DNA of 64,000 nt from Microthyrium microscopicum (Eukaryota), in assembly GCA_010405405.1 (NCBI GenBank), contig MU004238.1:1871530-1935529 (forward strand), written 5' to 3'. The translations under genes were made by a program, and so were the position numbers. The notes beneath the pieces were generated by a model that did not search any database, was not told where the DNA came from, and worked only from the letters and a program-made list of their open reading frames with translations. Below, in pieces: positions 1-46,408 of this stretch; the stretch's first letter is position 1; the number at the start of each line of letters is the position of its first letter.

Positions 1-920
1 CACGAAAAGGCATCATGAACGACTGGGTCATGCATCTCGAAGCTGCAAGTGCTCTATTATCCTCAGTGGCGCTTCCTGAATCAGAAAGGATGATCACGGA
101 CTCACCTGCTTCCGTTAATTCTGAAGTAGCAGAAAATGAAATTGCTCGGAGCTTCCCTATCCACCTTCTTTCCGAAGGAGACAAGTCAGCTTTTGAATAC
201 TACTTGAGTCTTTACACCTGGACTTTCATCACTTCAACCGTTAGCCTAGGATTAATGCCAAATTCTGAACAGGCGGTAGCGCGAATCAAATCAATCTTTC
301 ACAAAGATCAATCCAAACTGAGGGGAGTATTAGGATGCGAGGATTGGATTATGACGACACTTTTAGATATTGCTGTGCTGAAAGACTGGAAGCAGAAGAT
401 GCAGAGTGCTGGTACTCTGAGTCTGAGAGAACTCTCTCGAAGAGCAGATATTCTTGATGAGAGGCTCGGTGACGGCATCCGCGCCATGGCCGCCACAGAA
501 TCCAATGCCAGAACTTTCAATGAGAAGCAGCAACGAATAATTAACAATACAATGATCCACGGCTCGTTGCTCTTTCTTAGCGCCGTCACATCTGGCTTTT
601 TCCCAAATCTTCCCGAGATCAGGCAAGGCGTCGCAAATACCTTGGAAGCTTTAGAGTACATGCGAGAAAACTCGTCTATCAACATCCCGTCCTGGCCATA
701 CTGCGTAGCCGGTTGTTTAGCACAAGAATCACAATACTCTAGGATCAGAGCGCTGCTGCCACCGCCCAGGAAAGACACTCACCCTTTGGTCTTAACAAGG
801 TGGACTTTGGATATAATTGAAGAGTGTTGGAGAGTAAGAGCATCACAAGCCGACGGAATGGAAACCTGCGATTGGGTTACAGCAATGGGTCGTCTGGGTA
901 CTAGATTATTGCTAGCCTAA
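1..920 (+). CDS. Fungal-specific transcription factor domain protein (Fungal_trans_2/DUF3468-like), 3' part; 5' end lies outside the window
   Basis: Open frame from the window edge. Motifs DWVMHLEAA, LGCEDWIM, LFLSAVTSGFFPNLPEIR, WPYCVAGCLA and IIEECWR...DWVTAM resemble the C-terminal domain of Zn2Cys6-associated Fungal_trans_2 proteins. Confidence 0.75.
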   Translation, partial: RKGIMNDWVMHLEAASALLSSVALPESERMITDSPASVNSEVAENEIARSFPIHLLSEGDKSAFEYYLSLYTWTFITSTVSLGLMPNSEQAVARIKSIFHKDQSKLRGVLGCEDWIMTTLLDIAVLKDWKQKMQSAGTLSLRELSRRADILDERLGDGIRAMAATESNARTFNEKQQRIINNTMIHGSLLFLSAVTSGFFPNLPEIRQGVANTLEALEYMRENSSINIPSWPYCVAGCLAQESQYSRIRALLPPPRKDTHPLVLTRWTLDIIEECWRVRASQADGMETCDWVTAMGRLGTRLLLA

Positions 921-948
921 GTTCTAACGATGAGGAACAAATAGTGTC

Positions 949-2958
949 TCATTTAGATGCTAAAGCACTTTCAAACAGTTCTGCCAACGCGATCATCTTC
1001 TCTTCCTGAAGTCTACGCCCGACTAGCTGGACTGCAACTGGGGTGCCATTTGATGCCTCAGGATCATCTGCAGATTGATTAGCCATATTCCTCACAGCAG
1101 AATTGTAACGTACATTCTTCCCAAACAATCCTATCGCTATCGTTCAGAGGCGTGTATTCCGTCTCAAACTTGTCGATGGTCGAGTCCGTCGTGGTCACTG
1201 GCACAACTACAGCAGTATAGTCAAGAGTATTGACCCAAGGGGTATACGCTATATTCGTGTCAGCATGAACTGCTCAGGTCAAAGATAAATGACTCAATAA
1301 CACACCAACGATGGCAGATTTGCCGAACTCAAGAGCAGGGAATGGAGCGACGGGTGCCAAAATAGCATCTACGGGCTTTCCTGTCTTCGTCAAGGCCGAT
1401 GTGCTGTTCCAATAATCCATGTATTCCTTTCGGTATGCTGCCACATCAAGGTTGATTCTGTGAAGAGCATCGACAGTCTTGGCGGGAACAGCCTTCTTGC
1501 CATAGAATTCCTCAATTCTGGGCTGAAGCGTCTCTCCAGACAAGCCAATATGGTGATGAATGTCTATTCCGCCATCAGAAGTGAACGCTTCGAACTGGAT
1601 CGAATTAGCAAACATCTTTCGCTATATGTTTCCCATCTTACGGCAAGTTTATATGCTCTGGCATGAGATGGTGGATTCCATTCAATTATTTCGTGGCCCA
1701 TTTCAAGAATCAAAGCCTTCATCTTCTCCATTGCTCTCTTGACTGGCGGCAACGGATTAACGTCGCCATCTGAGGAGTATAGACCAAAGGTGAGCTTTTG
1801 GTCTGTTGATAGCTTCGCAAGTTCTTCCCGCCATGGCATTTCAACTACGGCAGGGTCATGAAGCCATGGCTCTTGGGTCAATGCAGCTTGCATCATCAAC
1901 TTGATGCTTCTAGCGGTAGGAGCTAGAGGCCCACAAACAGAGGGTATTGTGTTCTGGCCAGGCATACTGTTGGCGGCGCCCACATACGGCAAGCGACCGA
2001 ATGATGGTCGAATACCAAAAAGGCCGTTGAATGCTGCAGGAATTCTATAAGAGGGAACTCATCAGCGTTGAAAAGAGAATACATAGGGAAGACTCACCGA
2101 ATACTTCCTCCTATATCAGTCCCGAAACCAATTGGGCTACCTCGCATAGCGATCAAGGCACCTTCACCACCGGAACTACCACCAGTACTCATCAGGCGAT
2201 TATGTGGGTTCAGAGTGGAGCCGACGATATGGTTCCACGTTTCCATGCTCATTACAGTATGCGGAAGACTGGTTTTGCAGAATGGTACTCCGCCCAACAG
2301 TCTGATTTCTCGAACGAGCTCGCTTTCCGTTGTCTTCTCTTTGCCGGTTCCCTTGATGCCTTCGAAGGTGTCAATCCACCCGACATAGCCCATGGTTGTC
2401 TCCACGCCGTGAACATGGAACTGGTCCTTAAAACTAACTGGAAGTCCATACAGAGGTCTAAATGTCTGTCAGTGGGATTAAATAGAGATGGCTGTAGCCA
2501 CTGCATAATGTTATGGAAGTACCTACCCGACTGGGCCCGCTCCAGAGGCGAATTTCTCATCTAAGAGTTTCGCGTCTGCAATCGCTTGATCGAAGAATAT
2601 CTCATGTAAGCAATTCGTCTGGGGGATTCAAGTCAGCCAGATGTAACAATGATCATGACTTTCAACGAACCAATTGATGGGCCAAAGCAGCCCTGTGACA
2701 AAATGCTGTGACTACTTTGGTGACAGTCCAGTTGCCAGAGCTTGTCTGTTCGACAATACGGACTGCATCAGACTCTGTGATTTCAATTTCCCAATCTTCT
2801 AGGTATTGCTGTACATATGCGCCAGTAACATCTTTCTGACTTTTCGCTGTTGGAATAGGTTGAGGAAGTCGCCATTCAAGAGGAATCAACTCCAGAACTG
2901 CCAGCTTCTTGCCCAAGGCTAATTCCTGCCAAGTCAGTTCAACTGGCATGGAACCCAT
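949..2958 (-). CDS. Amidase signature family enzyme (acetamidase/AmdS-like), multi-exon
   Basis: Exon pieces carry HGLPVSFKDQFHV (catalytic Lys), GGSSGGEGALIA and GTDIGGSIR (Ser-cisSer). The C-terminus reads VQLVGRRLQEEKMIALAELF and stops at TGA 949-951. ATG at 2958; several GT-AG introns. Confidence 0.92.
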
Positions 2959-3701
2959 TGTATGATCAAGTAAGATGTATGATTTTGGAAATGAAGAGAC
3001 AAGATTCTTAAAATACCAAAGTCAACGAGGAATACAGCCAACCTTTAATCAAACAGTAAGTTGAGTAAGATTGGCGATAGCATCTCCTCAAGAAAATCTA
3101 GCCATGCTTTCTTCCCGTCTCACAATCTGAAACGTTATCAACCTGATGTGCAATTGATAAGATTACCAGGTATCGCCTTATCTTCGTGGAGTGTCTATAA
3201 AAAGAGGGGTCCACATTTATCCACGATAGCATGTTTATATGAGAGCTCCCCGCTGCTGTTTTTGTCTGCGGAGGCAACGGCGGGATTGATTGCGCCGTTC
3301 ATATCTCCCAACCGCGCAAACCCGTGGAATGATCTCTGAGTATGCAAAGGGCCGTTCTTACCATTGCTAGTTTTATATCTGACATTCTGCGAATGTACGA
3401 AGACAAGCTGCTAAGAAATGGCTGAAGCCAGACGCCGAGCTGTTCTCTAGTCATCGCGGGTAAAGATAAGAAATGAATCTTGTACAGGAGATCACTAACT
3501 TGTATCTTGGAATGCTGTGAATTTAGTTGAAGATGTACAAGTCCTTTTTGTCAGTTCTTATCTTGAACGACATGTTTACAACTTCTATAAATTCAAGGTG
3601 TCGGAACCGCTGATCAGATATTTCGGTACCGGCATCTCAGAATACTTTGATTATCATCCTGTACTCGTCTCTTCTTGTTGCAAATTGTTCGTCTTCTCAC
3701 C
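2959..3701. promoter_or_regulatory. Divergent promoter between amidase and DUR3-like transporter, rich in HGATAR (AreA/NIT2-type) sites
   Basis: HGATAR on either strand at about 3075, 3135, 3155, 3178, 3224, 3464, 3558 and 3651. CGG triplets cluster near 3268-3284. Confidence 0.65.
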
Positions 3702-10718: not shown

Positions 10719-11571
10719 GGCAAGCTGTTAGTTTATAAGTATAGCTGTTTAAAGCTTGTGCTTAGTAGTAGGCTAAGGCAGCCTAAAGCTCGGATCGGGA
10801 TGCAGCGAGTGGGGTAAAGACACAATCAGATGGTGTATGAGGATGAATTAATGGGGTGAGGAGAGTATGAGAATGAGGAGACGGCGGAGTATAGGGACAG
10901 ATAAAGGAAAGAAAACAAATTGATGAGAGATTCTTTGTTGGAACAGGTGATGTCAAAGAAATGGAGATAGCGGTAGAGGATCTGGTCTTTTGGTAGTCAC
11001 TGGTCCAGTGCTGTGTGCTGAGTGGCCAACCTGAGTTGGGAACTGGTGGGGCTTGGGGGCATATGAAGTTGCATACAGCAGAGTATCAACTGACTGTGAT
11101 CTGATACAAAACTTATTCATTTTGTTATCAACTCACTGGTTCATTCTATTCCATTTCTTTTATGTTTATCAAATACTTACTTCTCTGGTGCTATCCATGA
11201 GTTTATCACTCCCCAGCTACGCCACAAAGAAGGTCAAGAGCAAGTGACCTCGTCTTTGTCCCCTCCTTTGTCATCAACTATTCCATCAGAGTTTCGGTAC
11301 CCACGCTTTTAGATTGCCAGCACATCTGGGAATTAGCTGACATCGATGTCATAGCCCTTAGAGAGGGCTAGTACTTCTCAGCGTCTTGCGTCGTTAATGA
11401 TAAGTTGCTGCTCAAACCTTCCGGCAGGCACATAGAAACTTCATGCATGAGATCTACTCCAGAGGTTTCAACATCTTCAAGAAGCATACGTTCAGATATC
11501 GTGCATCTGATCGGATTGGAAACAATCATCCCAGCTCAGCAGCTGCAAGCAGATCGATTCTCAAAAGTATA

Positions 11572-11605
11572 CCGTTTTTACCCTTTCAGTTGGGCCACGG
11601 TAGCG
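11572..11605 (+). repeat. Left terminal inverted repeat of the large DNA transposon
   Basis: Reverse complement of 20008-20041, 33 of 34 positions identical. Confidence 0.93.
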
Positions 11606-12030: not shown

Positions 12031-12132
12031 GGTATATAGAAATAATAGCTTAACTCCTAAGCTAGTTTGTGGTAGAACGTATAGTAGTAGGGGCATATTT
12101 TAGTATTTCGCTATAGCTAATCCCTAAGCTAT

Positions 12133-12346
12133 TGTGATGATTCCTCTTCATAGGCTTGACAGCGGTCTTGCCCTGGAGGGGCTACCCCTACACGGTGACG
12201 TCATAGTCACGTGCAGGTGGTCTGTGCGCGGATCCTGTCTACTACTTCAGCTCGCCTCCATAGCTCTAGATCTCTCTCTTTCCTAGCTTTGCATTCAATA
12301 TACTATCTTGATCTACTACGGCTCCCGTATCTCCAGGATCCTTACA
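12133..12346 (+). repeat. 5' LTR of the mini-retroelement
   Basis: TGTGATGATT...GATCCTTACA; colinear with 12971-13184 without gaps, 24 transition differences. Confidence 0.95.
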
Positions 12347-12970
12347 TAATGCAAAGCTCTTCAAACTCCAATTCCCGCGCTTACCCCGTGGGAGCAACTT
12401 GCCATCGGTTTGAATAGGCTCTTCAGCGCGCGAAGCAAGCGCGCAGCCATTCCAAAAAGCGCAGAAATTCAGCGCGCAAATTCAACACGCGTCCGTGGAC
12501 GCTCGGACCACCAATGGGCCCCTACGCGTTACGCGCATGCCCCACCAACATTCAAAAACGGCTCCCCTACATTCCAAACTCCCCAATACACGTTTATTCC
12601 TTAGAGTACCGACGCTACGAACGGTCCCTAAGAGGATTTTTGGGTAGTCCCTTAGGAGACAAGAAGAACTAGTAGTTAGCAGGATCCTACCAAAATAATA
12701 GGAGCAGAAGGGATAGGAGCGTTGGCAGATTCCCAAAAAATTCAGGAACGAGCGAAGGATTCTCAGCAATTTCAGCATCCTCAGCCAAAAAAACGGCATT
12801 CCACAGCACACGTTCAATAGCTTCAAAACAACAACACAACGAAGAGGTTTTTCACCTATCTACACGGTTCCTACAAGTTTTCCCCTCCACAGGCAATTTT
12901 CAAAAGGATCTTTTTAGCAAAAGCAGGAGCAGATTTCAGTTTAGGAGCACTAATTTTAAAGGGGGGCTCA

Positions 12971-13184
12971 TGTAATGATTCCTCTTCACAAGCTTAACAG
13001 CGGTCTTGCCCTAGAGAGGCTACCCCTACACAGTGACGTCATAGTTACATATAGGTAGTCTATATACGGATCCTATCTACTACTTCAGCTCGCCTCCGTA
13101 GCTCTAGATCTCTCTCTTTCCTAGCTTTGCATTTAATATACTATCTTAATTTACTACGGCTCCTATATCTCTAGGATCCTTACA
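12971..13184 (+). repeat. 3' LTR of the mini-retroelement
   Basis: TGTAATGATT...GATCCTTACA, preceded by the polypurine tract and followed by GCTAT. Confidence 0.95.
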
Positions 13185-13251
13185 GCTATAAAGGCTTACA
13201 CAACTCGTATTTTTAGCCTTTTTAATAAAGAAGGCTCCCTAATATTAGTAA

Positions 13252-13750: not shown

Positions 13751-14654
13751 GCTAGTCCTAGATTAGTCTAGCTCTACGGATTTAAGGCTCTTAAGTCCTA
13801 AGCTACTTTATAGTATTTAGAGTATAAAATTAGAAGCATTTTTATATTTAGCTATAGCTAAGTTACTAGCTAAGTTATTATAAGTATTTTGCTATTTTAG
13901 CTACTTTATAAAAAAGATAAGAATTTAGCTAGGATTCTATAAGATTAGTAATTATACCTACTAATTCTTATAGTAATTCTAGTTAATTCTTAAGTAAATT
14001 CTATTCTAAGCTATAGTTTAGAGATATATTTACTAAGTCTTAAATTTTTAAATATTAGATATATTTCTACTAGATCTAGCATTAGCTAGACTAGTTACTA
14101 TAAACTAGACCTAAGTTTAAGATAGTTTATTATTAAGTTAAATTTTATATATAGCTTATAATTAGTATAATTATAAAGCTTTATATAATAAGTAGATAAG
14201 AATTTACTATCTAGCTAGCCTAATAATATTAGCTACTAGATTACCTCTAAAACCCTTTTAGGGCCTTTAGTAAAGAATATAATATATTTTATAGTTTATT
14301 CTTTCAAGGTAGCTTAGAAATAAATATTTATATCTTTATAAGAAATACTTTTTCTTAAAAGTAATTTTCTTATTAGTTAAGTTTTATTTATTAACTTAAT
14401 ATTATTATTAGGCCTATATTTTATTCTACTTTCTTTATAAAATTACTAGATAATATATTAGACTTTAATAATTAAATCTACCTAAGTAAATAGTAAAACT
14501 ACTTAAGAAAAAAGTAGTTTAGTTCTACTATAAAAGAAAAGTAGTTTAGTTCTATTTATAAATATAATAAAATTTACTCTATATAAGCTATATTTTATTT
14601 ATCTTAAAAGATAAAATAAAATTATAATTTAGTACTTTCTATTTACGTTAAGTT

Positions 14655-15005
14655 TACTTAAATATAAAATATAAAGGTAATATATACTTAGATTTTATAA
14701 AGGTTTATTTTTACTTAGCTTTTAAGTATAAAATATAGAAGTAGCATATACTTAGATTTTATAAAGTTTTATTTTTATTTAGCTTTTAAGTATAAAATAT
14801 AGGAGTAGTATATACTTAGATTTTATAAGGTTTTATTTTTACTTAGCTTTTAAGTATAAAATATAAAGGTAGTATATACTTAGATTTTATAAAGTTTTAT
14901 TTTTACTTAGCTTTTAAATATAAAATATAAAGGTAGTATATACTTAAATTTTATAAGGTTTTATTTTTACTTAGCTTTTAAGTATAAAATATAGGGGTAG
15001 TATAT
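14655..15005 (+). repeat. 64-bp tandem repeat, about 5.5 copies, inside the transposon
   Basis: CTTARATTTT anchors at 14687, 14751, 14815, 14879 and 14943 (period 64). Confidence 0.92.
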
Positions 15006-17299
15006 TCCTTAAAGAAATAAATATTAGTTTATTTTTTTCTTTTTATTATTTAGTTTCTAGATACTTAGTAAATAATTACTAAGGATAAAAGTAGTAGGAA
15101 TTTATTAATTACTAGTATTCTATAATAAATATTATAGACGAAAAGGATTAGTAATAGTACTAATATTAGTAGCCTTAGTTATTAGAAAGGAAAGCTATAA
15201 AAATTACTAGTTTTTACTTATTTATAACGTAAGTTTAAGATAAAAAGAACTATAATATAAGTACTAAAGTTAGTATTTTTAGTAAATTTAGTAGCTATAA
15301 TTCTATATCTATAGCTATATAGCTATAAATACTAGTTTTAGAATATATTTTAATATAATTTAAAATTAGTAGCTACCTTTAGCTTAATTCCTTTAGATAC
15401 TTATAAAATAATAAATAAGATTAGTTTAGTCTTACTTATTATCTTTTTAAGGCTCTTTAAGTATTTAGAAACTACCTACGATACTAGTTTAGTAGTAATA
15501 TAGAATACGTTAATCTAAAAGTAAAACGTAAGTAAAGTAATATACTAAAAAGCTTTATATAGACTTATTATTATATTAATATAAAAAGTTAAAAGTCTAT
15601 ACTTTAATTAGTATTATACTTATAATAAATTTATTAGTCTTTATTAAGTTAATATTAGTTTAAAAGTCTTAGTTTAAAGTATAATTCTTTTATAGATATA
15701 TAATAGTTAAGTAGTCTATACTTTAGTATTATATTTATATTAAGAACTTATATTTATAAATAGAAAGAATTAAGAAAGGCTTTTTATTTAATTTAGATAT
15801 TAGAATATAATTAAATATTTTAAGCTAGTAAATACTTTTTATATTTATAAGTCTATCTAAACGTATATAATATACTAAGTATTTAGATATTATATATTTC
15901 TTAGTAGCTAAACGTTATAATTATAAAACTTAGAATAAGAATATAAATATATATAGTAGTAATTATAAGAACTAGTAGATAGTAGTACTTTATATATTAT
16001 ACTAAGAAGGGCTTCTTTATATTTTATATTATTTTATATAAACTATTACTAAGAATTATAAGCCTATACTAAGGTCTTTAAGAAAGTAAGTAGGAATATT
16101 AGTATTTTATATTATTTATATCCTTAGTAAAAGAGAAAAGATAAAAATAGTAAAATACTAATCTTAATGCTAATAAATATAGAAGTTATTAGATCTTAGT
16201 ACGAACGTTTTATACTAAGGTAGATTTCTAGACTAATTATTAGTTTAAACTTATATAGTTCTTTAGCTTTTCTACTAATTACTAAGTATCTATAATTATA
16301 TAATAGATTTCTTTTAGCTTACTAATTTTAGATACTTTATGTTCTAAACTAGATTTATAATTTATATAAAATATCTTTTAAGATTAGCTTTATAAAATAA
16401 TTCTAAGACTCTCTTTCTCTCTCTTTCTAAGTTTTCTAAGGTACTCTTCCTTAACTCTTTTTAAGACTAATCTTAGCTCTAGATTTATTAATATTTATTA
16501 ATCTCTTTATTATTAGTTCTTTACTAACTTAATTAATAAGAACGTAGATTTAATAGTATTAAATATAAGAAGTAGGTAAGGTAAATATAAAATTATTTAT
16601 AAGTATTCCTAGCTCTTAAAAACTTACGTTAAATTAAATTAGCTAAATATAATTTATAATTATACTCTTTTATATATATTTTATATTAATAATAAATACT
16701 TTTTACTATAGTAAGTAACTACTAATAAGTATATAAAGATTAAATATAGGATTATAATTTATTTAACTAGTTCTATTAATAATAACTATACTATCTACTA
16801 TAGTTAAGTTTAGGAAAGAAATTATTAGTAAATTAAATAAATGCTTAATAACTAGTTATATATATTTCTTAAGATAACTAGTTTAAGCTTTATAAATAAA
16901 ACGAGGTAAGATAATATTCTCTAGGTAACTTATTACCTATAGTATAGTTCTAGTTATTAGTAGGCTATAAATATAATAGAAAGTAATATATTATTAGCTA
17001 GAATTAGAAGCTAACTATTAGTATATAACTCTATAGAGTATAGAGAGATAAGGGTAAAAAAGCTTTTAAAGCTAAAGATAAAGCTATATTTTATTAAGAG
17101 TTAGCTAACTAATAAAGAGGTAGTTAAAGAGGGACTATTAGAGGTATATTTATCTAGAGAGAATCTAGCTAAAGAGAACTAAGCTAAAGAAGAGCTTACT
17201 AAAGAGAACTTAGCTAAAAAGGAGCTTAAAGACTAGTTTAAAATAAAGTAGTAGTATTATTATTAAGAATTATAAAAGGTTAAGATTAGCTACCTCTAA

Positions 17300-20007: not shown

Positions 20008-20041
20008 CGCTACCGTGGCCCAACTAAAAGGGTAAAAACGG
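20008..20041 (-). repeat. Right terminal inverted repeat of the large DNA transposon
   Basis: CGCTACCGTGGCCCAACTAAAAGGGTAAAAACGG followed by TA. Confidence 0.93.
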
Positions 20042-22353
20042 TAGAGTATCAACTGAAGAGATCTACATGCATGGGTACATGAATGATCTTCTCTTCCCTA
20101 GCTTCTTACCCCAGATGGTCGTTTGGCAGTATACCTTGATAGGACTTTGGTGTATACTACTAAGCAGTAGAGGAACAAGGTCAAGTTTGAAGTACAGATG
20201 CTTCGGAGTGATTCCTTGTCAACCTTGTCGTCTCCACGTCAACTTTCCCGGATTTCAGATCCTCAGCAAACGTGTTCCGGGTTAAAAATCCCTTCATCTG
20301 ATGCACAAAATTTGTTCTGTACGTGGCTTTTTTGTGTAATGCTTGAATGCCTTCTCTTAAACTTTTATAGGATGAAGTCATTTGTACTATTGGTCACTTG
20401 AATTTCACTCATCTCGGAATTGTGGCGATTATTCAACGGCTACACGCACAGTCTGGGAGTACAAAATTGGATCTATAATTTCTATCCGAGGGCTGAGACC
20501 GGGTAACCAGGTCGTAAACTCGAGGGGTTTATCTTTGAATCAACTATTCTCCGTTTAGCTTATCGTATTTGTCGATGGTTGTAGTACAGAGTGTGGATGG
20601 ACCTTCTATGCATTTGCTCTAAATACAACAGGTCGCTATCAAATATCATACAGGTTGATCCCGACAATGTCAACAGTGAGACTGAAATGACTCTAAATGC
20701 ACTGTGAGTATAGCTTATTATCAGAATTGCTAGGCTCCAATAAGTCTAGCCAGGAACAGGATCTCTGTTTAGCTTTAACATACCAACAACACTACTACCT
20801 TAAGTAAAGATTCTTTCGCTCGCTTACAGTAGTATCCAGAAGTTATCGTACAAGTTGTAGTTGTAGTTAAAGTTTAATATGGTACGCTTGGGCTACTAGT
20901 ACTAAACAGTGAAGAGTACGGATGGCTTCCGCATTGTTCTAGAGCTCCCTCAAGGATCAAAAGTTCCAACACTTGCAATTGGTTAGTTTATATCGTGACG
21001 CCTCCTTTTTTTGATTCTTTGGCGTTTTGCACCACATCTCAACCTTGATCTGTGATCTGATCTGAGTTGTTCCAACTCCATGTTGCAAACTTGCAATCTC
21101 ATCACGTTCAGGAGTCTCAAGCAAGACTTTTCCATACACTAAATACGTTGGGCCCCCTGTCACTCACCTTTCACGATCGACGCTTTTCGTGGATCCGGCG
21201 CCACAAGGCGTTGAATGTGGACTTGATTTAGCATGGTCAATGGACCGGCTGCAGAGTGCGGCTGTCCGTGAACGCCGCATGCTTCCATTTCTCCTTGTGT
21301 TTTGAAGGTTGAAACAACGCCATGCCCCTGGTTGCCATTCCCTGTCCCCTTTCTGGCTGTTGGCTTTTCCTTTCCATCTCCCATCACCTCCTTTGTGTCT
21401 TGGTTCAACTTTGCCAGCTTCGCCAGCTTCTCGACAGTCTGCGAGCCTAGCCCAAGCCTTGCTCCACTGCTAAAATTGTCCCTATCCGTCCGTGCAAGGT
21501 GTAAACTTCGTGATGGATCTTGTGGCCCCGACTTACTGTACTGCTTCTACCCTGCGTGATTGTTCATGTTCTCTAGAGGAGTCGTGTTGCCCATATTGAT
21601 CTTGACCACTCATCTTCATTCAAACTACTCTATCCCGGTATCCTGCATTTTGCTTACAGTCGGTCGTTCAAATTCGTCAATTGGTCCCGCGTCATGGGCA
21701 GTCAAGGCAGCGTATAGTAGGATCTTTAGACACTCGACAATTCTACCTACCTCCTGAAACACAAACTCGTCCCCAATGGCTCCATGAGTAGTCCTCGAAC
21801 CCCTTCCACGTCGCGACTGGCCTTCCCTCACCTCTCTCTCTCTTTCCAATCCAACAAACACCCACGTTCGTTTCATACCTCCGACTATGCCATTCTTTTA
21901 ATATCTCCGCATCTAATGCCAGTGCTTAATCCTCCGAGCCTGTAGCATTTCTTATTTTACACCACTCATCAATCAACGCCTTCTTTTGCCTTGTTCAGAG
22001 CACCATCATCCCGTTGTCACACCCGACCTGTCCCCTCTTCTCAAAGGACTCGACGTCGCATTCAATACTATCCTGCGCGTGGTCGCAGTTAGCCTTCTGC
22101 CCGTTTCGTCGTGCTTTGCAGAACAAGACTGGTTTCTGCATACTGTGACTTTCCCTCCTTGGCCTTGGGGTAACTGGTTTCAAAGAGACCAGTCGCATTA
22201 GTTTTGCTGCGACTCACCTTGATGCCTTTTAGTTCCACCGTCGAAAAGTACACAGTCTCGATACCATCGCTGCCGAATACATCCATTTGTATAGGACTCG
22301 ACTTCATCGCCATCTCCATGTCATCTTCATGAGGAGAATCGTCGCTCCCCGCA

Positions 22354-42290: not shown

Positions 42291-42722
42291 GAGGACGTTG
42301 AAACGTGACAGAGCCCACCAACGGGATTCAGAGTGTCATACCTCCCACCAACAGTATGGCAAGAAGTCAAGAGGTCAAGAAGGCAGAAGAACAAGTTGAA
42401 GAGAGGCGAGAATGTTGGGACCTAGAAGAGGTTCGTGACAAGCAGAAATGTAGGAAAGAAAGAGGATAGTCTAAGGCACGGAGGGGTACAGATTTGAGGC
42501 CAAAGGCTTGGAGGCCAGAGTGGAGCAGATTTACTGGAGGAATTGCTGGGAATTATTGGATAGAATGGAAAACGCCATGTCTTCAGGCAACAGTTTTTGG
42601 TACTTTACTACTTTCACACTCTGAGTCTCACGGCCGTCGGACTTGACAAGTTGAAATAATGGGGCAGTGTAGAGCTTGGACATTGCTTTTGACTGGTGTC
42701 CTTTTCTGGCTCTCACTCACTA

Positions 42723-45700
42723 CCGTAAGATTCCCACAACATGTCCGCAAGGTAACCAATCGATTCAGCCAAAATAGGGTGTTGAGGAGGATAGCGCGCT
42801 AGGGGGCGTTGAAAATATAGCGCTAGTAATTTAGGTAGTATCTGTTTTTAACGCCCTAATATTAGCGCTAAGTAAGCTATTTTGACTATTTTTAACGTTC
42901 TTAAAGATAAACTAAACTACTTTAAGCAGAATATTATTATTTTAATGATAGAGGTATGTTTATTATAATTAGGCTAAAGCCTTACATAGAACTATATATA
43001 TAGATTTTATAGTAGAATTCTATCTTCTTCTTTAATCTAATTAAAATCCTTAAATATCTATTATCTTAACTTAATCTAATTAAAAAATATTAAAATTAAT
43101 ATCTATAACTATGCTAAAGGTACTAAAAGAGGCACGTCCGTCATAATAAGCGCTATTAGCTAAACTAGACCTAAATATTATAAGGTTAAATTATTTACGT
43201 CCTTTAAGGGCAAAACCATACGCTAAAAAGAGTAAGGGATTTAACCTTTAGAAGGTTATTACTATTATAGCCAAATCTAGGTTATTTAATGCTATTTTAG
43301 TTTAAAAATAAATAAAAGTAATAGCGTGGATGCTATAATAGTGTTATATACTCTTCCTTAGTAAATAGTAATACTTACTACTATAGGGCATATTATAGTA
43401 TAAATATTAAGATATATATTAATAGTAGCATACTAGTATAGCTATTAAAGCTACTTAATACTTCGCGTTAAATAAGAGAATAATATAGTAATAGTAGTAA
43501 TAGCACTTATTATTATAGTTAATTCTATATATAAGCCATTAAGTTAAGCGTCTAGATATATAGAGAGAGCACTTCCCTAGACTTAAAGATGCTATTTATA
43601 TATAGTATTATTAAGAGCAAGATAAGAAGAAGTCTATAGGTACTTATTAATTACTTTAGAAGGCTATAGCGTTATATCCTTATATTTATATTACTAAAAT
43701 TAAGGCTAAAAAGATGCTAGCAATATATTAATTCTTATAGGGCTAGCTTTATAACTATCTAAAGCGCTTTAGGATTGCGTAAAGGAAAGTAACTTACGTA
43801 GCTTAGAAACTACCTAATAAGTAAATACTATAATATAGCAATCTTATTAGATTTATAAAGCTTATAACCTATAGGGCTATAGCGCTAGCTAGAGCTTTTT
43901 AAGTAAATATTAATATAATTTTAGATAAGGAATTAAAAGCAATAATATCTTCCCATTAAATTATTAATATAGATAAGATGCTAATACCTTTTTATAACTT
44001 TAATAATTATACTTTAGCTAATATAGGGTTAAAGATAGTTATAATTTATACTTATAAAGATAGAGATAATAAACGTTAAATAATAGTTATATTAGCAATA
44101 ATGGCTAATAGCATACTTTAAATCTTACTACTAATTATCTTCTATAGCACTACTAATAAAGATAAAGGTTATATCTTAAAGACTAAAGGTATATTCTACA
44201 ACTAAGAGATATTTATTAAATATAATAAGATAGCGTAAAATAATAAGGATATTATATAGTAGTAGTTAGAATATTGTTATCTTAGAGGATTAGATATAGT
44301 AGTAGAGGGGCCTAAAGGGCTTATAGAGAGGTCTAAACGGACTAAAGATGCTCTATCTCCTTCTACCTTAGGTAATTCTTCTCTTATACCTTCCTAAAAT
44401 AGAAATATTTTAGTACTAACTACGGGATCTAGAGCTTAATTTAATAATATCTCTACTAAAATCTAGCCCTACTACGTTAACTTTAACATCTTCTACCTCT
44501 TTAATATCTTCTACTTCTTTAATATCTATAATATACACTTCTAATCCTTCTATTCTTATTATAAACGCCTTCTCTGTACATAAAATGGCTACTATTAAAT
44601 AATAGTATAAAGACTATAATATTGTTATTACTATTATTCCCCCTAGTTATATATCTAAAATTTAACCGCTTAACGTTAGCGTAAATAAGCTATTTAAACA
44701 ACTTATTAAGGACCTTTAGGACCTATAGGCCTCTATATTCTTTTAATAAGAGCACTTTAAGGATATAAATATTAAAGATTTAGACCCCCTTAACTAGAAT
44801 ATATCTTAATATTAAGTATTTATAACGCATATAATAGCGAAGGCCTAGCGATAAATTTACTTTAATAAGGCTTTAATAATTAGACGCTTATTTACTACTA
44901 CGGGATTAAATACTATGCCTAAAAACGTTATTACGAATGAGAAGAACAATATTAGTATTAAAGATTTAATATTACTATTAGACCTCTTAAACTAGTACGT
45001 AGTAAAGCAAGAATCTATTAATATTCTTAGGGCTAGGGTTAATGAACAATAAGAGAAGATAAACGATTCTAATATAGAAGCTAAAGATGTTAGTAATAAA
45101 GATAATATAGAATGTTATAACAAAGAAGAAGCTAACGATTATATTCCTCTACCTATTAATAAAGATAAAGCTGTAGTAAATTTATCCTTTATTAAACTAA
45201 TAGAAGATATATAGTAAAATCTATATATAAACGACCTAATACCTATATTATTGCTAATTATCCTACTATACCCTAATACTTAGCCTAACCCTTAGCCTAA
45301 TTACTAGATTCCCTTACTAAAGGATTTTAAGTAGTATTACTACTATCTTTACTAAAATTAATAGGTAATTAAGCCGTCTAATGCCCTCTCCTAAAATGGA
45401 TTACTTAGTAGACACGAAGAGTTTTATCCTACTAAGATTTAGTATTTAACTACTTCTTTATTACTAATATTAATACTAGCATTCTAGCATCTAGGGCTTT
45501 TTTAATCTAATCCCTATCTTATTAAACGACTTAGCTAAAATATCTATCTTTAGCATCTAATAGTAATATTCTATTATTAATAGGACTACTTAAATTAGTA
45601 GTTAGACGTTAAATTAGGTAGTATTCTTAGCCTATAGCAAATATAGATAAGTAATAAAAATTATAGGTAATATCTACTCTATGTTAGTATTAAAAATACG

Positions 45701-45950
45701 CTTTAAAAGTATTACTTATATATAATACTATATCTTCTTATTCTTGCTATTTTATACTAATAAAGATATTATTATATAGCTTTAATTTTAGGTATTTAGT
45801 ATATTTAAAGATAGGAACGCTATTATAGCTTTTAGCGTTCTAAAAATGGATTACTACAAAATTACTATAGGGGGCATTTCTATAGAAACCGCCCTAAAAA
45901 CGCCTCTCCAGCGCCCTCGACCTTGCGGACATGTTGTCAGCTTTTTACGG
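42723..45950 (+). mobile_element. RIP-inactivated pogo-like (DDE_1) DNA transposon, 3228 bp
   Basis: Imperfect 31-bp TIRs: CCGTAAGATTCCCACAACATGTCCGCAAGGT versus CCGTAAAAAGCTGACAACATGTCCGCAAGGT (26 of 31). TA on both sides; TpA-rich interior. Confidence 0.92.
43000..45200 (+). pseudogene. RIP-destroyed CENP-B HTH + DDE_1 transposase (ends approximate)
   Basis: Plus frame: FPRLKDAIYI*Y (~43575, HTH) and G*LYNYLKRF (~43745). IINIDKMLIPF (~43960, for NMDETP), MANSIL*ILLLIIFY (~44100), SILIINAFSVHK (~44550) and IIPPSYISKI*PLNVSVNKLFK (~44635, for IPPGxTSKIQPLDVSVNKPFK). Confidence 0.88.
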
Positions 45951-46408
45951 TACTGACTGTGAGTCTGTGACTGGGTGCTGGGTCGTGTCTCAACTCTCAA
46001 CCACGCACCCGATTCCTGCTAAATAAGTGCTGACATGCTGGCCCATAGCCGGAGAATACTGGGACTTATCTCCGAGTGAGGCTGAGTATTTTCCAACTTC
46101 ATATCAATCCTTGAGAGCAATATCATACTTGACTTTGAACCGATCTCTAACAACTAGAATAGACAGAATGAAGTAAAATCAAGCTCCATAACACTTGCCT
46201 TTCCATTAAACCGGTTGAACATGGGCAACAGCACGCGCTCCTTGAGTCCTGCAGCTGCAGCCCAGCACCCCATAGCCTCGCCTAACCAATTCCGCTCTAG
46301 CTCAATATCACCCACTAGCTCAACACCAAAGCCCTCAACATCATTCCATCACCAAAAGCACCCCAAAATTCCATCCCACCATTCGCCAATTCATACACCA
46401 GCCACACA

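Follow-up and report, generated by a model that had tools for sequence, protein, structure and literature searches.

Miniature LTR retrotransposons with putative self-priming signals in the genome of Microthyrium microscopicum

Self-priming of reverse transcription has been shown for the retrotransposon Tf1 and is predicted for many full-length fungal chromoviruses. In Tf1 the self-primer is reportedly released by RNase H cleavage, in work by Levin and Lin. The priming structure of Tf1 comprises three duplexes arranged as a 'pretzel' (bioRxiv 10.1101/2022.12.06.519325). Self-priming is described as a shared trait of the Tf1/sushi group; one study predicted it for 12% of the plant elements it surveyed (PMC6317226). 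TRIMs have been annotated in Dothideomycetes, in papers whose main texts contain neither the term 'PBS' nor a primer-site analysis (PMC4112212, PMC4646964). The authors who described biv-TRIM of bivalves cite Tf1-type self-priming as a precedent and could propose no mechanism (PMC6934838), and for sugar beet elements template switching has been proposed to reshuffle LTRs and interiors (PMC13570524). These accounts and the comparisons made below draw on parts of PMC6934838, PMC2864245, PMC4600332, PMC4112212, PMC4717578, PMC13570524, PMC4646964, PMC6317226, PMC3601003 and the bioRxiv report. Among the papers listed in searches of a mostly open-access literature, none was found to describe a self-priming TRIM; Repbase entries and supplements could hold cases.

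Here we consider an element of about 1 kb in a 64,000-nucleotide stretch of M. microscopicum DNA, hereafter the window. A preliminary description presented it as a TRIM-like parasite retaining only the cis signals of a self-priming Ty3/gypsy element. Comparative evidence supports that proposal, and the element very probably represents a small, non-autonomous family of miniature LTR retrotransposons carrying the cis signals of self-priming (Tf1/sushi-type) Ty3/gypsy elements.

Architecture of the element and its copies

All features lie on the plus strand. LTRs of 214 bp, each of the form TG..CA, occupy 12133-12346 and 12971-13184, are flanked by GCTAT at 12128-12132 and 13185-13189, and enclose a non-coding interior of 624 bp (12347-12970). 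These boundaries agree with the preliminary description. Two placements needed adjustment. The predicted primer-binding site AATGCAAAGCT (12348-12358) had been set immediately after the 5' LTR; the site stands and the adjacency does not, as one spacer base, T (12347), intervenes. The polypurine tract AAAGGGGGG (12958-12966) is present as claimed and ends 4 nt short of the 3' LTR.

The U3 region begins with 38 nt (12133-12170) near-identical to the LTR start of the full-length C16/C6b family. The motif TGACGTCA and a CACGTG follow (12196-12213), an arrangement common to a sister miniature family; in U3 of both miniature families CACGTG occurs 12 nt after TGACGTCA, and the pair is found in none of four full-length LTRs checked. 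The two motifs resemble bZIP and bHLH sites, and the pair may represent a stress-responsive promoter. A search for TATA-like words found none in the window-copy LTR. The predicted self-primer (12285-12295) lies after AGATCT and a pyrimidine tract; it begins 62 nt from the end of the LTR and would be the opening 11 nt of the transcript. An inner U5 stem-loop is predicted at 12305-12339, where 12305-12310 would pair with 12334-12339 and 12317-12321 with 12325-12329. Within the interior there is a predicted hairpin 3' of the primer-binding site (12372-12394), in a region where other copies vary, and a short hairpin-like motif with a GAGCA loop 5' of the purine tract (12941-12953).

A 125-codon minus-strand frame in the element has no Pfam match and no frame of that length recurs in four other copies checked. 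The interior is non-coding, with no frame common to the five copies checked. Ten Rfam matches (E up to 1) are all below the gathering score and none falls inside the element.

The LTRs of the window copy differ at 24 of 214 sites, all by transitions. Twenty-two of these represent G>A or C>T changes in the 3' LTR, the signature of repeat-induced point mutation (RIP). The 3' LTR, the more damaged of the two, borders an AT-rich block of approximately 7 kb. It retains the primer 11-mer intact (13123-13133), as originally noted.

The miniature is hosted by an 8.5-kb RIP-damaged element bounded by 36-bp inverted repeats (35/36; 11570-11605 and 20008-20043). This host element has subterminal repeats, a 64-bp tandem array (14594-15105), many inverted-repeat pairs of about 150 bp that are MITE-like, and longer relatives elsewhere. 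Elsewhere in the window, 44-bp inverted repeats 3.2 kb apart (42710-45963) enclose another AT-rich block that is probably a DNA transposon damaged by RIP, and one protein is 100% identical to the M. microscopicum PPIL4 cyclophilin. The repeated nature of the host element provides empty sites for comparison. Eleven left-flank paralogues, inspected among 20 loci taken from 68 matches, are all empty and carry a single GCTAT. GCTAT is a real target-site duplication that marks the insertion, as had been claimed.

A DNA search of the assembly (37.1 Mb, 58 contigs) returned ten matches, eight of which make up six copies: C9 (the window copy), C11, C10, C8, C3a and C3b. A RIP-tolerant 29-nt LTR pattern gave 12 matches, two for each copy, and none with a reversed control; thus no solo LTR or long element with the LTR of the miniature was detected. 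LTR lengths are 210-214 bp in all six copies, and the four without nested insertions measure 1038-1057 bp. The preliminary description had anticipated several copies of about 1.05 kb with different 5-bp duplications, and six were found, with GCTAT, AAAAC, ACTTC, CCTTT/TCTTT (a single C>T), CTTTT and ATACT.

Within each copy the two LTRs differ by 6 to 24 transitions, with no transversion and no indel in 1274 aligned sites over the six copies; between copies LTRs differ by one to ten transversions or indels. Each copy therefore has a private LTR haplotype common to both its LTRs, and the flanks are unrelated. Because both LTRs are rebuilt from a single template during reverse transcription, a haplotype shared within a copy is the expected signature. 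Segmental duplication would not yield it. Since each copy has its own 5-bp duplication and private haplotype, each was reverse-transcribed as a miniature. The data show six independent insertions by reverse transcription of the miniature itself, in keeping with the earlier proposal that it moved as a miniature unit. LTR divergence was rejected as a means of dating, since every difference within a copy is a transition and RIP inflates that class.

Two copies are longer. C3a carries a 154-bp nested insertion (copy positions 678-831) that has short inverted ends and is flanked by a separate 5-bp duplication; it probably represents a solo LTR from a different family. C3b (3.7 kb) contains a 2674-bp insertion (positions 594-3267) with an 8-bp duplication. 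This is RIP-damaged, has terminal inverted repeats starting TAGTG, and is presumably hAT-like on the basis of its repeat and duplication features; its junction appears as a loose end in the public sequencing run X5. C3b was considered as an autonomous parent and rejected, the extra DNA being an inverted-repeat insertion with 86 to 127 stops per frame.

Relatives in the same genome and the origin of the miniature

The sister miniature family (1.13-1.2 kb) has three two-LTR copies, at C12:569861-570996, C3:2861878-2863009 and C16:396609-397806, and at least one clean solo LTR (C1:~1697693-1697925). There is also a heavily mutated, LTR-like piece at C12:~1326042. An RNase H profile search gave 150 scored matches, three without stops. 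Seven full-length elements of six families were examined: the three that are stop-free, those next in order of score, and one to which an LTR match pointed.

The element C2a (C2:1270097-1277757), a full-length chromovirus, has identical LTRs and a pair of long open frames. It encodes protease, reverse transcriptase, RNase H and integrase, together with a chromodomain just under the Pfam cut-off. It lies in AT-rich DNA, apparently spared by RIP, and its family has a RIP-damaged member at C1:1692165-1700056. C2b is a 9.8-kb Ty3/gypsy element (C2:942586-952356) with identical 140-bp LTRs, a tRNA-Met primer site and a chromodomain; its first frame of 1379 codons has no Pfam match. The C16 family is abundant and RIP-damaged, with at least 40 LTR matches among the scored part of 86 candidates. 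Many of them form pairs separated by about 7.4 kb, and the family includes none of the three stop-free RNase H matches. One LTR-like piece of this family (C2:~940959-941300) has a short inverted-repeat insertion inside and an adjoining 15-bp tandem array.

Throughout its length the miniature LTR shows homology to the LTRs of C16, C6b and C2a (z = 9.7, 9.8 and 7.3) and to that of the sister miniature (z = 5.6). The similarity to full-length C10 is weak (z = 3.1), and there is no homology with C6a, C2b or C5 (z = 1.0, 0.8 and 0.2). The LTR is a mosaic at finer scale. Nucleotides 1-38 (C11 copy) are identical to C16 at 35 of 38 positions and, ungapped, to the sister miniature at 14; the window-copy LTR is 92% identical to the C6 element over 38 nt. 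For nucleotides 39-76 the values are 30 of 38 for the sister and 16 of 38 for C16. At the U5 end C16 (8/12) is no closer than C2a (9/12) or full-length C10 (8/12). The ends of the sister miniature are closest to the full-length C10 family (LTR z = 10.0).

The interior shows no alignment with any of the seven full-length interiors (z ≤ 0.4), and aligns from end to end with that of the sister miniature (z = 8.9). In a stricter test only the last 36 nt, including the motif at 12941-12953 that the sister miniatures also have, are common with the full-length C10 family (z = 12.2). Two isolated alignments of 31 to 43 nt (z = 3.6 and 4.0) were treated as chance because they fall inside coding regions and differed between the two copies tested.

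In addition, a hairpin with a GGAG-containing loop lies 5' of the purine tract in the window copy (12941-12953), C2a, C16, C10 and the sister miniatures, with stem letters that differ between families. It is a candidate packaging or strand-transfer signal. A metagenome scan with the motif gave three matches, all in the same bacterial coding region, and these were dismissed as chance.

Could the copies be internal-deletion derivatives of a full-length element, or one deletion spread by DNA duplication? The 36 interior nucleotides shared with the C10 family and the 38 LTR bases shared with C16 are what such a history might leave, and a heavily RIP-mutated parent could evade searches. Against this, the six duplications, unrelated flanks and private haplotypes are those of separate insertions, and the interior, compared with seven full-length interiors and that of the other miniature family, resembles only the latter. 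The RIP-tolerant LTR pattern matches the 12 known LTRs alone, an interior pattern gave 18 matches, nine in miniatures and nine unrelated, and the 3.7-kb copy owes its length to a nested insertion with an 8-bp duplication. A lone short copy aligning to a full-length element as a single internal deletion had been named as grounds for abandoning the miniature reading, and that is not what is observed. Descent by deletion or DNA duplication is thus already largely refuted and we judge it very improbable.

A miniature that encodes no protein would depend on a helper. The preliminary description looked to a full-length gypsy element sharing the LTR and primer site. None with the whole LTR was found by DNA search or RIP-tolerant pattern, searches that give lower bounds; the closest family, C16/C6b, has the first 38 LTR bases in common and a self-complementary primer pair of other sequence. 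For this reason the helper can be inferred only from those 38 nt, and it is most plausibly the abundant 7.65-kb C16/C6b family.

The primer-binding site and a model for priming

The sequence AATGCAAAGCT is the exact reverse complement of 12285-12295, as first reported, and is the longest interior-to-LTR reverse-complement match. When the window-copy LTR was shuffled 1000 times, no 11-nt match ever began 3 nt or less from the LTR end. The pairing comprises 11 Watson-Crick pairs in four of the six copies (0/1000 shuffles each) and, in miniature copies C10 and C8, 11 pairs including G-U at RIP-type sites. In all six the primer segment starts at the same distance, 62 nt, from the LTR end. RNA corresponding to 12285-12400 has a predicted fold of -31.9 kcal/mol (z = -6.05, 0/200 shuffles as good) that consists of the 11-bp helix, the inner U5 stem and the downstream hairpin.

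Of the three duplexes known in Tf1, the model indicates a clear central one and a plausible inner one, with the third not found in the miniature. The inner stem, which ends 8 nt short of the site, is matched in stability by 7 of 300 shuffles for the window copy and 25 of 300 for C3a; in the sister and full-length families it is not significant (39 to 177 of 300). For the third duplex, sought with the first 14 nt 3' of the site, 74 of 300 shuffles are as stable in the window copy, and 114 to 208 of 300 are as good in five other elements.

Sites complementary to the element's own LTR recur in relatives. The three sister miniatures have complements of 10, 8 and 8 nt at 62, 60 and 61 nt from the LTR end (0, 57 and 8 of 1000 shuffles), and between two of them one pair differs, T-A in one and G-C in the other, with primer and site both changed. 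Among full-length elements the match is 11 nt at 65 nt in C10 (0/1000), 10 nt at 64 nt in C2a (0/1000), 9 nt at 64 nt in C6a (3/1000) and, in C16, 7 nt by strict pairing (33/1000) or 11 nt with G-U at 62 nt. Each of these four families has different primer letters. In C2b and C5, which are TGG-primed, the match is no longer than 7 nt and is placed differently (37 and 74 of 1000). Under the strict Watson-Crick test the RIP-damaged C16 (33) and T2_C3c (57) do no better than these two. The loop between primer and site is 52 to 57 nt in all six elements measured, and AGAT(C/T)(C/T) with a pyrimidine tract lies 5' of the primer in most elements compared.

Eleven bases is a short match and there are 47 exact copies of the word in the genome, so a coincidence in an ordinary non-autonomous LTR element deserves consideration. 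The shuffles fail to reproduce the match, the position is fixed 60 to 65 nt from the LTR end across six families, and the two TGG-primed controls have no match at that position. Shuffle and position tests together refute coincidence, to which we attach almost no probability.

Is the site instead complementary to a tRNA? It had been described as lacking the TGG of a tRNA-type site, and it does. Thirty-three tRNA loci were detected, with 63 of 1518 candidates scored, and 30 were compared with the 25 nt following the LTR. No 3' end among these 30 matches the primer site, the best complement being 7 nt and internal. The test works, since it recovered a 13-nt match between C2b, the positive control, and the 3' end of tRNA-Met. 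None of the 47 genomic 11-mer matches overlaps the 33 listed loci, compared by eye. These results bear out the initial view that the site is not tRNA-type.

A further alternative accepts the miniature family as real and regards the complementarity as an inherited relic or an RNA-packaging structure, with priming by a tRNA fragment or other RNA. It gains something from a transcript start at 12285 that is only predicted, from the missing third duplex and from the coverage of the tRNA comparison. However, a mature tRNA 3' end requires the TGG that the site lacks, the absence of overlap between the 11-mer matches and the listed tRNA loci counts against it, and the two miniature and four full-length families each keep the pairing perfect with letters of their own. 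We regard it as unlikely, and favour self-priming.

The steps of self-priming are inferred by analogy with Tf1. RNA polymerase II would start the transcript at about 12285 and its first 11 nt would fold back and anneal to 12348-12358. The RNase H of a borrowed reverse transcriptase would then cut the primer free, minus-strand synthesis would copy U5-R and the purine tract would prime the plus strand. A borrowed integrase would insert the DNA, making the 5-bp duplication. Gag and Pol would come in trans from a resident self-priming chromovirus, C16/C6b being the most plausible, and RIP would damage the copies afterwards. Weighing against this model are the missing third duplex, the lack of significance of the inner stem in other families, the strict-pairing scores of RIP-damaged elements, the failure to find TATA-like words in the LTR, and the unrelated LTR of C6a, an element that also has a self-complementary site.

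Seven public runs contain part of the element and contigs of four were compared. In run X5, assigned to RNA by guess only, contigs cover 12423-13094 of the window copy with two differences. Another X5 contig, spanning 12303-13038, agrees with C3a at 30 of the 34 variant sites listed, the next best copy agreeing at 17. If X5 is RNA, these contigs fit transcription of at least two copies. The X5 contigs of the miniature family leave 12171-12302 uncovered. The contig beginning at 12303 does so with adapter letters, a contig from X6 (share 0.12, depth 3, DNA by guess) begins at 12291, and one from X7 (share 0.05) spans 12142-12299 and might derive from either LTR. Contigs cannot show a transcript start and their ends are not counted as evidence.

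With primer and site on the same RNA, a parasite would need neither a tRNA nor the primer sequence of its helper, just the geometry of approximately 62 nt. The mosaic LTR, with a C16-like tip here and C10-like ends in the sister family, invites a more speculative idea, that the two miniature families are one long-lived, parentless parasitic lineage that switches helpers by swapping only the U3 tip. We consider this possible, with the balance somewhat against it. If true, the elements would be natural minimal substrates defining recognition by self-priming reverse transcriptases, and such an enzyme would be shown to work in trans.

Comparison with known systems

Multiplication of a gene-less family that has just a self-complementary site implies processing of the priming structure in trans, by the enzyme of another element. 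The loop of 52 to 57 nt, conserved despite different primer sequences, provides a testable rule for enzyme recognition. Annotation tools that require a tRNA primer site would miss or misfile such elements. The impact is limited because both ingredients are known, there are six copies and no host effect is shown. The analysis confirms a real element that is a modest variant of known biology, and in this fungal lineage self-priming is the mode to be expected.

Sugar beet modular or chimeric non-autonomous LTR elements (PMC13570524) similarly form families with regional similarity; in contrast to the miniature they carry tRNA-derived primer sites, and the main text of that paper does not contain 'self-prim'. 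The bivalve biv-TRIM (PMC6934838) is likewise an LTR miniature that lacks a canonical tRNA site. The fungal miniature differs in that its self-complementary site is explicit and conserved in position.

The likeness to TRIMs is extensive. The terminal direct repeats of 210-214 bp are within the range of 100-250 bp, the short interior is non-coding, and there are a purine tract, 5-bp duplications and multiple copies. The element was amplified as a miniature unit, in six copies with private LTR haplotypes. A full-length parent was not found, which in the plant TRIM literature drawn on here is the usual case (PMC4717578, PMC13570524). Unlike TRIMs, the primer site is not complementary to a tRNA, and the length of 1038-1057 bp is marginally over the limit of <1000 bp given in PMC6934838.

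As in the Tf1/sushi group, a site right after the 5' LTR is complementary to an internal LTR segment and not to a tRNA. The miniature also has TG..CA LTRs, a purine tract and a 5-bp duplication, and its LTR is homologous to that of a chromovirus in the same genome (C2a, with its weak chromodomain match). An inner U5 duplex is predicted and plausible. Unlike members of that group it lacks Gag and Pol, and its self-priming is a prediction from sequence; nor was the third 'pretzel' duplex detected. We use the label of a TRIM-like variant because the element departs from TRIMs in its primer and, marginally, in its size, and has no protein by which to place it in a Tf1/sushi phylogeny. The comparison gives good support to the view that the miniature is a TRIM-like, non-autonomous variant that would work like a Tf1/sushi element.
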